DNA from: Pseudomonas phage BRkr
Sequence record: LC765218.1
Direction: 5' to 3' (one strand)
DNA length: 64,000 nucleotides
The notes beneath the pieces were generated by a model. The model worked only from the letters and a program-made list of their open reading frames with translations, did no database searches and had not been told where the DNA came from. The translations under genes and the position numbers were made by a program. Below are positions 58,905-63,478 of the stretch, piece after piece. The first letter of the stretch is position 1; the number at the start of each line of letters is the position of its first letter.

Positions 58905-60752
58905 TTAAATTCCAAGACGATAGAACTTGTCTGTAATTGTATTATTACTGGCTCCAGTTAGACCACCGCCAACATATGCTGTGCCATTAATAAATCCACC
59001 ATAGCCATCATTCACACCGTTTGGTAGTTCTGGTAGTTTACGCCAAGTTCTCGATTGGATATTATACGCATTGGCTTTTCTACGTTTGTCTTCGTCAACA
59101 CCGCCAATGTATATAATTTCTTCATCGTTAGTCAGCATTACACCGTAACTGTTAACACCTGGCCCATCGGTAGTCGGTAGAGACTCCCATGCAAATGTAT
59201 TCATATTCATTCGATCAAATCGACCGGATTGCGAACCATTTACAAATCCACCATAGACATACATGTACTCGCCGACAACAACCGCTCTATGTGAAGATCG
59301 TTGGATACCACCTTGCGCGACTCGTTTTGACCACATGTTAGATGCAATATCGTAGACGAACAACGCGTCAGATTCATTATTCCCGCCAAGCAAATAGAGC
59401 TTACCATTATAATGAACCATCGTAGCTTGTGTTCTAAATACTGGATTAGATGAACCCGGAGAAGCGGGTGTAATAGCCGTCCAATCATTGGTCGCTACGT
59501 TATAACGCCAGAAATCCGCTGATTGGTTAGATCCACTGAATAGGTACATATGTGTATCATTTGCAGCTGCACACATATTGGCACGTGCACTCGGACTTAA
59601 ACCAGATCCAGTGAATAGACCGTTCCATGTATTAGTCTCAGGATTATATTTATTAAACGCGCCTCTATATGCACCTGTACTTGTATACCCGCCGAACATA
59701 TACAGTTCATCATCTATTACAACCGCAGTGGAACCTCGACTATCATAAGGTGCGTTTGCCATTACTTCCCATTCAGTTTTACTTGGAGGGATAGGAATAG
59801 TGAATTTATAGATAGCTGCTTTCGTTCTTTCAGGGGTGTTAAAAAGGGCATCATCGATAACAATGTCCGAACCACCGATCAGATACAGATCGCCATTCGA
59901 TGGATTTAATGCGACTGATGTCCCATGGACCTCACCAATATTCGTCTCAGTAACAACAAATTGTTTTTCGGCGATATAATAACGAACACAATGAATCTTA
60001 CCATCTTTAACGATAGTGTAGTTAAAAGTCCCGTTCCAGTACTTACCACCTTGATGACCACCGTGGTAGTCTGTAGAGTATGAATGGTACAATGTCCATG
60101 TATTAATAGCACCGGTGTATTTATAAACATCTTGGTTAACAACCCAACTGCCAGAGATGTTCTTCCATCCACCCATCACATAGAAATTCCCTTTATGGCA
60201 GAATGCATACGCTCCAGATAGAATAACAGGGCACCGGGCACTCATTACTTCTCGAACGTTATTCGATAGTCTATAGCGAATCAAAAGATCTGTTGCATGT
60301 TCCAGTACCCAAATAAATTCACCGCCATCCCAATCGCCGATACTGTTATAAGTGGATGTATTCATCAACTGATTACTAATAAGATTATCATTAGGTACAG
60401 TTGGATTGATCATCGTGATGACGTTTTGTGTCCAAGAAGCGCCACGACGCCCACCGAACATGTAAAGTCTATCGGATGTTGGAACAAATACACCCGCCGT
60501 ATGACAAAGTGAATAACTATTTTGGACAGCTGTTTTACTGATTTGAGTACCAGTGCTATCAAAAATTCTGATGTTATTATCAGTTGTACTTCTTGATGGG
60601 GCACCACTATTAATATTTAATAAACCATTTCTGAAATAGGGTACCGATCCAACCAATCCAACATCCAGTTGTCCAAACAATGTTGGTTGGTTATACGGTA
60701 TCATTTCCACTGGCTTAGCTTGCCCAGCAGCTGATAACAATAATTCAAACAT
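58905..60752 (-). CDS. Kelch-repeat beta-propeller protein 3 (615 aa); N-terminus MFELLLSAAGQ
   Basis: at least 9 Kelch-like blades (LYMFGGRRG, FYVMGGW, LYLIGGSD, LYMFGGYTS, MYLFSGSN, LYLLGGNN, MYVYGGF, IYIGGVDED, AYVGGGLTG). Confidence 0.8.
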   Translation of the reverse strand: MFELLLSAAGQAKPVEMIPYNQPTLFGQLDVGLVGSVPYFRNGLLNINSGAPSRSTTDNNIRIFDSTGTQISKTAVQNSYSLCHTAGVFVPTSDRLYMFGGRRGASWTQNVITMINPTVPNDNLISNQLMNTSTYNSIGDWDGGEFIWVLEHATDLLIRYRLSNNVREVMSARCPVILSGAYAFCHKGNFYVMGGWKNISGSWVVNQDVYKYTGAINTWTLYHSYSTDYHGGHQGGKYWNGTFNYTIVKDGKIHCVRYYIAEKQFVVTETNIGEVHGTSVALNPSNGDLYLIGGSDIVIDDALFNTPERTKAAIYKFTIPIPPSKTEWEVMANAPYDSRGSTAVVIDDELYMFGGYTSTGAYRGAFNKYNPETNTWNGLFTGSGLSPSARANMCAAANDTHMYLFSGSNQSADFWRYNVATNDWTAITPASPGSSNPVFRTQATMVHYNGKLYLLGGNNESDALFVYDIASNMWSKRVAQGGIQRSSHRAVVVGEYMYVYGGFVNGSQSGRFDRMNMNTFAWESLPTTDGPGVNSYGVMLTNDEEIIYIGGVDEDKRRKANAYNIQSRTWRKLPELPNGVNDGYGGFINGTAYVGGGLTGASNNTITDKFYRLGI

Positions 60753-61477: not shown

Positions 61478-61526
61478 TTTCAGTATCTCCTATAACTCCG
61501 ATATTGGAGTATAACATCACGGCATA

Positions 61527-61552
61527 AAAGAGTAGCCAATGGCTACTCTTTT
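61527..61552 (-). terminator. hairpin AAAAGAGTAGCC-AAT-GGCTACTCTTTT immediately 3' of the tRNA 3' fragment
   Basis: same repeat family as 62214..62237. Confidence 0.5.
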
Positions 61553-61557
61553 GAATT

Positions 61558-61590
61558 TGGCTCCGCGACCTGGACTCGAACCAGGGACCC
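61558..61590 (-). pseudogene. tRNA 3' half (T-arm CCTGG-TTCGAGT-CCAGG + acceptor 3' strand TCGCGGA-G-CCA)
   Basis: canonical T-arm and CCA end; acceptor strand is the exact complement of the 5' fragment at 62341..62374. Confidence 0.6.
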
Positions 61591-61603
61591 AGTATATTTT
61601 TTT

Positions 61604-62161
61604 TTATTGTGTGGGGACCAAGGTGCTAATACCCCCATTAGCACCGACCCTAATAAACCTAGCCGGAATATTGATCTTGTATGCTCGGCACCATTTACGA
61701 ATAGCGTTATCGGATACTCCATACTTCTCTCCTATTTTTACAAGTGATAGCAATGTAACATCGAGGGCAAGTTGTTCTTTGGATGGTCGATCCACCTTAC
61801 GACGACCTTTGGCTGAACACTCGGGGCTACAGAATGTTATCAGTCGGTGACTAATGACAATACCACAGCCAGCACAAAGCTTAGTTGGATAGTTCCTAGG
61901 ATCAATACCGAGCCGTTTCATCCAACCATGTAACTTCATGTGTTGTGACTGAGGGAGAATCAATAAGTTCTCTGGATGGTTGTTAAGCTTATTCTCATCC
62001 AGATGATGAACTTCCTCGTCATCGTAAAGTGGTCTACCTAATGTGTCTTCTCCAACCACTCGATGTTCGTAAACCCATCCAAACATTTTAGGGTTAGCTA
62101 TGGCTTGACGATGTTCGGGTAAATATAATGCCCTATAGCCGTTAATTATTTTCTCTTTCAT
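61604..62161 (-). CDS. HNH homing endonuclease (paralog 2)
   Basis: VHHLDENKLNNHPENL; about 70% identical to paralog 1 over the conserved core. Confidence 0.85.
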   Translation of the reverse strand: MKEKIINGYRALYLPEHRQAIANPKMFGWVYEHRVVGEDTLGRPLYDDEEVHHLDENKLNNHPENLLILPQSQHMKLHGWMKRLGIDPRNYPTKLCAGCGIVISHRLITFCSPECSAKGRRKVDRPSKEQLALDVTLLSLVKIGEKYGVSDNAIRKWCRAYKINIPARFIRVGANGGISTLVPTQ

Positions 62162-62213
62162 ATCGAACCTAGGATATATAAATAGATCGCTAGTTCGATC
62201 TATGTGACGGAAT

Positions 62214-62237
62214 AAAGAGTAGCCGGAGCTACTCTTT
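62214..62237 (-). terminator. hairpin AAAGAGTAGC-TCCG-GCTACTCTTT 3' of the nested tRNA
   Basis: repeat of the 61527 hairpin. Confidence 0.5.
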
Positions 62238-62242
62238 GAAAT

Positions 62243-62329
62243 TGGCTGGTAAGGTAGGATTCGAACCTACGATGGGCTTTCGCCAACGGATTAACAGTCC
62301 GCCCCCTGCTACCGCTCGGGTACTTACCA
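62243..62329 (-). tRNA. unusual tRNA: anticodon GUU (Asn-type anticodon arm identical to E. coli tRNA-Asn) with a long type-II-like variable arm
   Basis: perfect acceptor TGGTAAG/CTTACCA, D-arm CCC-GAGCGGTAGCA-GGG, anticodon stem GCGGA/TCCGT, loop CTGTTAA, 15-nt variable arm with GGC-GAAA-GCC hairpin, T-arm GTAGG-TTCGAAT-CCTAC, CCA encoded. Confidence 0.6.
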
Positions 62330-62340
62330 AGAAAACTATC

Positions 62341-62374
62341 CAGTCGCTTGCTCTACCGACTGAGCTATCGCGGA
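62341..62374 (-). pseudogene. tRNA 5' half (acceptor TCCGCGA + D-arm GCTCAGTCGGTAGAGC)
   Basis: canonical 5' tRNA half with no matching 3' partner nearby; complements the 3' fragment 760 nt downstream. Confidence 0.6.
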
Positions 62375-62470
62375 AGAATTATTAACAACTTCTTTCTTGT
62401 AGAAAAATCACAAGTAACTGAATTACAGTATTTCACTACATATTATTACAATCTGAGTTAGATAGTTATT

Positions 62471-63478
62471 TTAATCAATGGCTAATGGTGCTAGTTTTAC
62501 CTGATAGATACCTGATAACAATTGGCTTTTTAACATATATGCTCCACCACCAACTGGCATTTTAGATCCACCTGCAATGATCATGCTATTATCTGGTCCT
62601 TTGGCTATAGATGAAATATTAAGGAATCCAATACCTAGTTCAAATGGTTCAGCCCATTTCCGGCGCCTAATATTAAAACGCTGTGCAAACATTTTAGTTA
62701 CACCGCCGACATCAACTGCATTAAGGTAATTAAAATATTCCCCATCTACATAACCATTACCTTGCCATATTGTTGCTTTGTCAGCAGGTATTATTAGCCA
62801 TGGTGTTAGTTCCCATACAAGTGTAGTAACATTGTATCTATAGACTTCTAAGTTTGGTATGTTCTTAGTATTATCCCAGCCACCAAAATGGTAGAAATAA
62901 CCATTATAATAAAATAATTGTTGACCTGACCTAGGTCCACCGCTATAGTCTTGACCGCCGAGCCAGTTCTTAGTCGATGGTTTTAATCGCATGGCGTTTG
63001 TACCAACTGGATTAACACACATAATAAGATCATTGCCATCAGACGCTGACGCAGTTCCCCATAATGCACCAGGACCACTATAACGCTCAACGCGACTACC
63101 TGTGCTTATATCAAAATGTTGTATAAAGTTAGAAGTACCTGTACCCCCATCACCTGCTGCGTTCCATCCAGTAATACCACCATAAACAATAAAGTTATTT
63201 TTATGTAATGTACCAAATCCAAGTGATACACCCGGTAAAAATGTACCAGATGCTGTTGCGCTTATCTCTGTAAATGGGTTTATAGTGAACCGTCTGAAAA
63301 CAGTTGCTGCTGATTGTCCTTCCGTATGATGTCCGGATCCAACATATAACGTATTTCCATCTACGTACGACATCGTACCTGCCAATGCTACCGGTAGGTC
63401 ACCTAATTTTATAATTTCACTAAATCCAACCAAGGGTGTTTCATCGCCTAAACCTGATGATAATAGTAATTCAAACAT
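62471..63478 (-). CDS. Kelch-repeat beta-propeller protein 4; N-terminus MFELLLSSGLG
   Basis: blades LYVGSG, FIVYGG, YFYHFGGW; 5' UTR nearly identical to that of protein 3. Confidence 0.75.
   Translation of the reverse strand: MFELLLSSGLGDETPLVGFSEIIKLGDLPVALAGTMSYVDGNTLYVGSGHHTEGQSAATVFRRFTINPFTEISATASGTFLPGVSLGFGTLHKNNFIVYGGITGWNAAGDGGTGTSNFIQHFDISTGSRVERYSGPGALWGTASASDGNDLIMCVNPVGTNAMRLKPSTKNWLGGQDYSGGPRSGQQLFYYNGYFYHFGGWDNTKNIPNLEVYRYNVTTLVWELTPWLIIPADKATIWQGNGYVDGEYFNYLNAVDVGGVTKMFAQRFNIRRRKWAEPFELGIGFLNISSIAKGPDNSMIIAGGSKMPVGGGAYMLKSQLLSGIYQVKLAPLAID

Follow-up and report, generated by a model that had tools for sequence, protein, structure and literature searches.

Nuclease genes and interrupted transfer RNA (tRNA) genes meet in several described systems. 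Split tRNAs of Nanoarchaeum and the introns of archaeal tRNA genes depend on complementary leaders or on a bulge-helix-bulge structure, and a splicing endonuclease is needed. The homing endonucleases I-HmuI and I-BasI are phage-borne, mobile and located in group I introns of DNA polymerase genes. In Aeromonas phage Aeh1, nrdA is reportedly split without an intron by the free-standing HNH gene mobE (the 'genes in pieces' of Friedrich et al. 2007), and the pieces of the nrdA protein are said to stay functional and to reassemble. I-HmuI and I-BasI of Bacillus phages are cited as HNH_3-type nicking homing endonucleases in PMC12908238. Group I introns interrupt the anticodon loops of bacterial tRNA genes, among them cyanobacterial tRNA-Leu(UAA), tRNA-Ile/Arg/fMet and, in Patescibacteria, tRNA-Asn/Asp at position 35/36 (PMC13011429; PMC3984707). 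T4 SegB, a free-standing GIY-YIG homing endonuclease encoded in a tRNA cluster, recognises a T-psi-C stem-loop motif and spreads neighbouring tRNA genes (PMC2330249), and its statistical association with tRNAs has been described (PMC13096335). Here we analyse a locus in a 64,000-nucleotide stretch of Pseudomonas phage BRkr (record LC765218.1; the whole stretch is called the window below), where the two halves of a tRNA-Asn gene enclose an HNH endonuclease gene and a second tRNA-Asn.

The source of the window is a phiKZ-like jumbo phage of Pseudomonas aeruginosa; over this region it shares 99% identity with PA1C, phiLBG22 and phiHQ, also jumbo phages of Pseudomonas, and about 87% with phiKZ and its close relatives. 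Read on the minus strand, the locus runs from the 5' half of the tRNA through 11 junction bases, an 87-nucleotide tRNA, a hairpin, a terminator-like stem-loop, an HNH open reading frame (ORF) and 11 further bases to the 3' half and a copy of the hairpin. Both halves, the nested tRNA and the HNH gene had been marked in an initial annotation of the letters, and all four stand, with their coordinates, after inspection of the sequence, ARAGORN and Rfam runs and ORF and Pfam analysis. We consider it highly probable that the halves are the remains of a tRNA-Asn gene of host type, into whose anticodon loop a mobile nuclease cassette with a tRNA-Asn of its own was inserted.

This arrangement shares features with each of the described systems and differs from all of them. 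As in the case of T4 SegB, a phage nuclease gene of a homing-endonuclease family lies among tRNA genes. SegB, however, is a GIY-YIG enzyme encoded between tRNA genes and associated with no split gene, whereas the enzyme of the window belongs to HNH_3 and is encoded inside a tRNA gene, just 3' of the anticodon, in a cassette that brings a replacement isoacceptor of a different structural class. With I-HmuI and I-BasI, likewise mobile and carried by phages, it has in common the Pfam nuclease domain and the combination of an N-terminal HNH with C-terminal DNA-binding modules; its C-terminal zinc-ribbon/helix-turn-helix-like module is different and is shared with tRNA-associated nucleases. The group I introns of bacterial tRNAs also interrupt the anticodon loop, some of them carry a homing endonuclease ORF and tRNA-Asn is a known target, but here no ribozyme core is detectable, the exons are incomplete, a complete extra tRNA sits in the gap, and function would be restored, if at all, by replacement and not by splicing. 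Separate halves, complementary acceptor strands and an interruption next to the anticodon recall the tRNAs of Nanoarchaeum and the bulge-helix-bulge introns, yet the boundary pairing of those systems is missing and seven tRNA positions are absent. Unlike the protein pieces of nrdA, those of the RNA are defective, and the cassette supplies a substitute. The literature searched contained nothing on a split tRNA-Asn in phiKZ-like phages or on nuclease genes inside phage tRNA genes. The structure would be a new form of intronless homing, not a new kind of system.

The 5' half (62374..62341, minus strand) reads TCCGCGA TA GCTCAGTCGGTAGAGC A AGCGA CTG and contains the acceptor strand, the D arm, the 5' strand of the anticodon stem and C32, U33 and G34. 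The 3' half (61590..61558, minus strand), GGGTC CCTGG TTCGAGT CCAGG TCGCGGA G CCA, contains the variable loop GGGTC, the T arm, the 3' strand of the acceptor stem, G73 and CCA, and is extended by CT at 61592..61591, the final two bases of the anticodon stem. Matched to Pseudomonas tRNA-Asn and aligned with intact genes of phiKZ-like phages, the 5' relic (62341..62374) represents positions 1-34 of a host-type 76-nucleotide tRNA-Asn; match and alignment likewise identify the 3' relic (61558..61592) as positions 42-76 of the same gene. The acceptor strands of the two halves pair in 7/7 positions, as had been noticed initially. The Pseudomonas reference was obtained by matching a degenerate tRNA-Asn pattern against bacterial genomes, which gave at least 120 loci, nearly all from the Pseudomonas group among the matches listed; the host sequence TCCGCGATAGCTCAGTCGGTAGAGCAAATGACTGTTAATCATTGGGTCCCTGGTTCGAGTCCAGGTCGCGGAGCCA occupies 114 loci among the 120 matches listed. 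Identity of the window halves to Pseudomonas tRNA-Asn amounts to 32/34 bases for the 5' half and 34/35 for the 3' half, and the likeness noted initially is to Pseudomonas tRNA-Asn and not to that of E. coli in particular.

We also used a purpose-written scan for a T arm and acceptor strand outside called tRNAs, pairing 7/7 with an upstream 7-mer that precedes a D arm. In the whole 64-kilobase (kb) window, on both strands, the sole match was this pair, and the control of 400 shuffled 4-kb loci yielded 2 matches. The likeness of the halves to one tRNA-Asn gene is far beyond chance. An origin by chance or artefact is ruled out by the host match, by the scan controls and by the occurrence of the same structure in at least 13 independent genome records.

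The halves had been taken for the 5' and 3' parts of one tRNA. Positions 35-41, however, are absent from both: the remainder of the anticodon, nucleotides 37-38 and three bases of the 3' strand of the anticodon stem. The joined window halves were not recognised as a tRNA, and ARAGORN, run on the window with introns allowed up to 1000 nucleotides as the initial annotation had advised, returned the nested tRNA only. An artificial join that keeps the junction bases provoked a spurious "tRNA-Pro" call, which was disregarded. The joined halves of phiKZ and of phage 124.01 are complete and recognised as tRNA-Asn. In the window, the halves are dead relics and cannot be rejoined.

Related phages show the same locus in both states. 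phiKZ-like phages have two places for a 76-nucleotide tRNA-Asn: site A, by tRNA-Asp and upstream of gene 298, and site B, downstream of gene 297. At site B, the 76-nucleotide tRNA-Asn of fMGyn-Pae01 and PA7 is continuous, as the alignment with the tRNA region of related phages, suggested at the outset, shows. In phiKZ and 124.01, the anticodon loop holds an insert of about 774 base pairs (bp) that is bordered precisely by CTGTT(A) and (A)ATCACT, with flanks otherwise identical, and consists of the junction CGATTTCAT, the 87-nucleotide tRNA (the cargo tRNA below), a hairpin, the HNH gene and a short tail. At site A, the intact gene with the AAAGAGTAGC hairpin behind it is present in phiKZ, PA7 and FBPa36, and fMGyn-Pae01 and T2P have a 5' half, the same junction CGATTTCAT, the 87-nucleotide tRNA and the hairpin, with neither HNH gene nor 3' half. 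The left cassette junction of the window, GATAGTTTTCT (62330..62340, minus strand), is by alignment homologous to CGATTTCAT of phiKZ, 124.01, fMGyn-Pae01 and T2P. Both the insertion polymorphism and its exact boundaries are direct observations. We also considered two partly deleted tandem copies of the tRNA gene; this is ruled out, as the halves of phiKZ meet exactly (CTGTTA / ATCACT): compared with the single gene of sister phages, nothing overlaps and nothing is lost.

Distribution was counted over about 50 phiKZ-like records. A near-complete cassette was found in 13 phage records and the 5' half with the tRNA only in 8, and about 26 of the phiKZ-like records listed carry intact genes only. 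Among near-identical genomes the cassette is patchy, and most phiKZ-like phages lack it. Presence and absence at the two sites, together with this distribution, form the pattern of a mobile insertion and not of an ancestral split gene, which supports the first of the two explanations offered by the initial annotation, namely that a mobile tRNA-plus-HNH cassette entered an ancestral tRNA-Asn gene.

Phage and host versions of the interrupted tRNA gene are about 97% conserved; the insert divides its anticodon stem-loop, and phiKZ keeps one intact copy of the gene. The 3' relics hold the T-loop variant of the local allele, that of 124.01 being like PA7 and that of phiKZ like fMGyn-Pae01. Near the junction, occupied alleles differ from intact ones: phiKZ has A28 opposite C42, 124.01 an extra A31G, and fMGyn-Pae01 and T2P G34T. 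The occupied allele of phiKZ further has T at T-loop position 57, and that of the window has the deletion. Acceptor pair 5-68 is C5-G68 in the window and U5-A68 in phiKZ, a compensatory change. Since intact alleles of both types exist (C5-G68 in the host genus, U5-A68 in phiKZ-like phages), this covariation is older than the split and is therefore uninformative on function after it. Conservation of the acceptor complementarity, to which the initial annotation had attached weight, is thus real but silent on function. Judged from the sequences, each lineage's cassette sits in its own lineage's tRNA-Asn allele.

A cassette of this kind is present also in Psa21, a phage of Pseudomonas syringae from another genus, where a long-arm tRNA lies directly upstream of an HNH gene with 66% protein identity. 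There it follows another 5' tRNA half, TGGTAAA TA GCTCAGTTGGTAGAGT, and no 3' half is left. The acceptor strand TGGTAAA is close to the cargo tRNA's own (L004 1985-2040), and two weak tRNA-like remnants are seen further upstream (L004 1580-1744). In HPP-Temi, which is related to the window phage, the downstream hairpin and flank are the same, and the tRNA-Asn that precedes them is intact but different. Between this gene and the shared hairpin lie about 75 nucleotides (L005 3765-3835, minus strand) with a tRNA-like fragment, GCGGGTAGCTCAGTATAATCTAACGCCGCCCA, which may be another relic.

The cargo tRNA is the one complete tRNA-Asn(GTT) found by ARAGORN and Rfam (tRNA family, 54.2 bits); it occupies 62243..62329 on the minus strand and is 87 nucleotides long. 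It has a 3-bp D stem, the anticodon arm GCGGA-CTGTTAA-TCCGT, a 3-bp extra arm with a GAAA loop, G73 and an encoded CCA. Conservation of this structure is directly visible in a covariation test with six sequences from four phage lineages and 24 pairs, in which all five helices were kept and 96.5% of cells were paired. Both partners differ in 11/24 pairs, among them all 3 of the extra arm; a score as high was reached by no shuffle (0/500), and slid controls collapse. Identity elements of E. coli asparaginyl-tRNA synthetase (AsnRS) are the anticodon GUU and the discriminator G73. The GTT anticodon and G73 are present in 6/6 long-arm tRNA-Asn sequences, and the cargo tRNA is predicted to satisfy the requirements for asparagine identity. 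Its long arm with G73 would leave some room for recognition by seryl-tRNA synthetase (SerRS) as well as AsnRS.

The cargo tRNA belongs to a family of long-arm tRNA-Asn(GUU), 85-88 nucleotides long and class II-like in shape, with a GAAA-capped arm and G73, which is found in unrelated phages. It recurs in Pseudomonas fluorescens phage Y1-MI, in Proteus phage Stubb and in Psa21 (copies are located at 62243-62329 of the window, minus strand, L006 1511-1598, L007 1500-1584 and L004 2042-2129), and partial BLAST matches are given by hundreds of T5-like Salmonella and Escherichia phages. Nothing on a long-arm tRNA-Asn was found in the literature searched. Because the nested gene is the only tRNA-Asn that ARAGORN calls in the window, and because PA1C-type genomes have no entry among the full-length matches to the host-type tRNA-Asn, the nested tRNA probably replaces the broken gene functionally.

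Hairpin 1, AAAGAGTAGC-TCCG-GCTACTCTTT (62214..62237, minus strand), follows immediately on the cargo tRNA and nearly duplicates hairpin 3 (61527..61551, minus strand), the resident stem-loop behind the tRNA-Asn gene, which is found also behind the intact tRNA-Asn at phiKZ site A and in HPP-Temi. Two matches to the AAAGAGTAGC...GCTACTCTTT hairpin were obtained in the window against 0 expected. Both copies had been placed between the halves; this is correct for hairpin 1, whereas hairpin 3 lies just 3' of the 3' half. Another stem-loop, ATAGATCG-AACTAG-CGATCTAT with a T-rich tail (62182..62203, minus strand), is terminator-like, lies upstream of the HNH start and is conserved in phiKZ. Upstream of the broken tRNA gene there is a conserved block, TCAGATTGTAATAATATGTAG (62436..62456, minus strand), unique in the window. 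The same 21-mer precedes the site B tRNA-Asn in phiKZ, where the gene is split, and in fMGyn-Pae01, where it is intact, and the block is a candidate for the resident promoter region.

The HNH gene (61604..62161, minus strand) encodes a protein of 185 amino acids with a Pfam HNH_3 match at residues 31-75 (E = 1.3e-10) and a match to phrog_15471 'HNH endonuclease' (5.5e-53); it is the homologue of PHIKZ296, annotated as HNH endonuclease. The nuclease domain is a direct observation, and the motif VHHLDENK.NNHP..L...QSQH.KLH is conserved in the window, phiKZ and Psa21, with the catalytic HH..N..H intact. The N-terminal HNH_3 domain is followed by a CxxC..CxxC zinc ribbon and a helix-turn-helix-like 'VSDNAIRKWC', and phmmer against PDB sequences gave no match for the enzyme at E <= 1. 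The ORFs of the window and Psa21 are full length. In copies of the phiKZ type, the A-run that follows codon 3 is longer by one A, ATGAAAGAAAAAAATAATTAA (phiKZ, L002 2040-2062, minus strand; the same in 124.01, L010), so that the 25 conserved codons at the start are shifted out of frame and the annotated ORF of PHIKZ296 begins at the internal Met26. The C-terminal 95 amino acids (61604-61890, minus strand) form a module common to three nuclease domains, HNH_3, HNH and PDDEXK_5. Besides the window, it is shared by ORFs in L218, L243, L248, L270, L284 and L241, all in or beside tRNA genes. This zinc-ribbon/helix-turn-helix-like module is covered by no Pfam family and may be a domain that binds the DNA of tRNA genes.

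The association with tRNA genes extends to the relatives of the nuclease. In a set of 80 IMG/VR loci whose enzymes are 29-54% identical to that of the window, tRNA genes lie within 2 kb in 79/80, and 442 of the 450 tRNAs in 331 kb of these loci are on the nuclease strand. The half-tRNA scan detected a tRNA split around the nuclease gene in 11/80 loci, compared with 0 on the opposite strand and 2 in 400 shuffled loci. With flanks of 10 kb on either side, it detected 18 split pairs in 14 loci, with the nuclease ORF just 3' of the anticodon. When the insert is assigned to this place, canonical loops result from the exons, such as CUUUUAA for Lys, UUUGGGA for Pro and CUCCAAA for Trp. The ORFs inside split pairs are of the types HNH_3, HNH and Pfam PDDEXK_5, the last of which we take to include the endonuclease I-Ssp6803I of the tRNA-fMet intron in Synechocystis. 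Most of the ORFs are fused to the C-terminal module of the window enzyme, CxxC..CxxC and then RP.REEL..LI...F..I...Y.VSDNAIRKWC.

From these observations we infer how the cassette would cut, home, be expressed and replace the gene it has broken. An ancestral genome would have carried a 76-nucleotide tRNA-Asn gene nearly identical to that of the host, and a cassette of about 750 bp, composed in this order of a short junction, the 87-nucleotide long-arm tRNA-Asn, the hairpin and the HNH endonuclease gene, would have been copied into it directly 3' of the anticodon. During co-infection, by analogy with intronless homing, the HNH enzyme would nick or cut an uninterrupted tRNA-Asn gene in or near the anticodon stem-loop, and repair would copy the cassette from the occupied allele, the two tRNA halves serving as homology arms. 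The carrier itself would be protected because its target is split. Insertion would destroy the resident tRNA, and the tRNA-Asn supplied by the cassette would keep its anticodon loop and G73 but place them on another scaffold. Lying 11 nucleotides behind the old 5' half, the cargo tRNA would probably be transcribed from the resident promoter, with the 5' relic as a leader. The relics would decay afterwards, and in the window a small deletion would have taken out positions 35-41. The hairpin in the cassette repeats the resident one and could thus provide a second crossover point, which would explain the alleles with the tRNA and without the HNH gene.

Several points weigh against this scheme. 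phiKZ combines the cassette at site B with a tRNA-Asn that is intact at site A, and a fully active enzyme directed at this target should have converted site A. The +1 A frameshift of the phiKZ type may explain why the intact site is tolerated; this explanation comes after the fact. Activity and cleavage site of the HNH enzyme are only presumed. The cargo tRNA and the target have 11 central bases, GACTGTTAATC, in common, so the immunity of the cargo tRNA is only assumed. Relatives in the cultured Bacillus phages Izhevsk and McCartney are free-standing between intact tRNAs, and insertion inside a tRNA is therefore not obligatory for the family. Among phages, an empty-site allele exactly of the TCCGCGA type of the window was not found, the nearest relative, HPP-Temi, having its different intact tRNA-Asn. 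Finally, an antisense oligonucleotide screen of phiKZ reported no more than a weak effect for HNH nuclease 296 (PMC12571901), a result which is uninformative on homing; in the literature searched, PHIKZ296 is named solely as an "HNH nuclease" with this weak phenotype.

Some of these points would suit another course of events, in which the cassette was inserted, but placed or spread by ordinary or illegitimate recombination between phage tRNA regions, with the HNH gene as a passenger or now inactive. phiKZ tolerates an intact target beside the cassette, the ORF of the phiKZ type is frameshifted near its start, and there are alleles with the tRNA and without the HNH gene; repeated hairpins and tRNA similarity are, moreover, substrates for plain homologous recombination. 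We nevertheless regard a passenger role as unlikely. The same junction is found at two tRNA-Asn sites and in two phage genera, so target-directed copying fits better than repeated accidents. Relatives of the enzyme are almost always located in tRNA arrays and repeatedly inside tRNA genes just 3' of the anticodon, and the ORFs of the window and Psa21 are full length with an intact catalytic motif.

The second explanation of the initial annotation, a split or intron-containing tRNA reassembled at the RNA level, fares much worse. Were the 748-nucleotide intervening stretch an intron, self-splicing or protein-assisted, the halves would be ligated to a working tRNA-Asn. The insert does lie in the anticodon loop, as do the bacterial group I tRNA introns, including that of tRNA-Asn at 35/36 in Patescibacteria (PMC13011429); the halves of phiKZ and 124.01 are complete and join to a recognisable tRNA-Asn; and the acceptor pairing is kept with a compensatory change between phage lineages, which the intact alleles account for. 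Against these stand the loss of positions 35-41 in the window, whose joined halves give no tRNA, and the changes at structural positions in halves of the phiKZ type (A28 opposite C42, T at 57 of the T loop). No ribozyme is recognisable. Scans of 921 nucleotides of the window (61500-62420) and of phiKZ (L002 1400-2320) against Rfam intron and ribozyme families gave no match at E <= 10, which also answers the suggestion that the intervening sequence might fold as a group I intron, and at the same threshold no Rfam intron or self-cleaving ribozyme was found in 11 kb of the window, in Psa21 or in the inserts of eight metagenomic split loci. Only about 103 nucleotides of the 748-nucleotide gap are outside the tRNA and the ORF, which is too little for a group I core. 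In phiKZ, the last base of the insert is not G and its ends are unpaired (mini-construct z = 0.0), the longest helix between them being 6 bp and out of register; the corresponding boundary of the window has been deleted. An intron is very improbable. It is more improbable still, to the point of being hardly credible, that the halves form a true split tRNA, transcribed separately and assembled in trans by acceptor pairing as in Nanoarchaeum: the perfect 7/7 pairing and the intact D and T arms would permit this, but the anticodon, positions 37-38 and most of the 3' strand of the anticodon stem are absent, complementary leaders or trailers are lacking, the 3' half, 11 nucleotides past the HNH stop codon, has no evident promoter of its own, and the same locus is an ordinary continuous gene in sister phages.

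Splitting of a host-type tRNA-Asn gene by a mobile cassette, which we prefer for the window, may be one outcome within a wider class. Among the metagenomic relatives, six inserts forming a helix were tested, and those typed by Pfam are PDDEXK_5. In these inserts the two ends are base-paired, both mutually and with the anticodon, which lengthens the anticodon stem to 20-30 bp (z = -3.3 to -9.0), and the ORF nearly fills the insert (465 of about 477 nucleotides in L274). Helix-forming inserts are located at L241 2661-3470, L243 9437-10315, L257 9393-10315, L264 1504-2060, L270 9437-10340 and 11729-12476, and L274 16129-16680. The HNH_3-type insert of L218 (z = -0.7) and that of phiKZ (z = 0.0) have no such helix. 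A tRNA with a helix-forming insert is usually the sole gene for its anticodon within 10 kb on either side. We rejected a bulge-helix-bulge interpretation of the metagenomic inserts: the predicted folds are continuous helices with single mismatches, not bulges of 3 nucleotides spaced four base pairs from each other. When IMG/VR was searched for an exact match to an uninterrupted version of the L012 split tRNA-Lys, none was found, the exact 44-base pattern being a harsh test.

In members of the PD-(D/E)XK type (Pfam PDDEXK_5), the exons are complete. The helix-forming inserts may mark tRNAs that are dead, sites of processing from which the nuclease mRNA is released, or a tRNA intron that needs no ribozyme. 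The last possibility, that the PD-(D/E)XK-type pre-tRNAs are matured by protein enzymes through cleavage of the helix and subsequent RNA ligation, and would thus represent a ribozyme-free tRNA intron in bacterial viruses, is a long shot. It is inapplicable to the copy in the window, where the exons are incomplete. The element of the window may be a decayed, tRNA-rescued descendant of an undescribed ribozyme-free class of nuclease genes situated directly 3' of the anticodon in phage tRNA genes.

The loci of the relatives contain further unusual RNAs. Thirty of the tRNAs called by ARAGORN are 82-95 nucleotides long and have anticodons normally of short-arm tRNAs (Trp, Ile-UAU, Glu, Thr, Cys, Met, Val, Lys, Asn); examples are L025 2286-2370, L060 2286-2370 and L034 1414-1505, and several lie directly downstream of the nuclease gene. 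Suppressor-type tRNAs (CUA, UUA) also occur in the arrays of the relatives. Other structured RNAs in phage tRNA arrays are a full ROOL RNA (320 bits), a sub-threshold twister-P1-like match (46 bits) and sub-threshold Y RNA-like (YrlA) matches (L053 2879-3468; L037 403-454; L014 116-225).

In the window itself, the tRNA-Asn locus is bracketed by paralogous ORFs on the minus strand, one of 335 amino acids (62471-63478) and one of 615 amino acids (58905-60752). Both begin with MFELLLS and are similar to the virion structural protein PHIKZ298. The PA1C lineage is rearranged around the locus relative to phiKZ and has neither gene 297 nor the tRNA-Asp/tRNA-Asn pair.

These results explain an odd part of the tRNA region in phages of the phiKZ type, which are model nucleus-forming phages; its annotation marks only "tRNA-Asn" and "HNH endonuclease", and the relics are unmarked. 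They point to a third way in which a selfish nuclease gene can occupy a conserved gene without harm. Two ways were known already, a splicing intron or intein and a gene whose pieces remain functional; this element brings along a spare of the gene it breaks. Several nuclease families with one DNA-binding module in common appear to land repeatedly in tRNA genes, and especially in the palindromic anticodon stem-loop. As the target is near-identical to the host tRNA-Asn and the spare differs in scaffold, the element could influence both the competition of co-infecting phages and resistance to tRNA-directed host defences.

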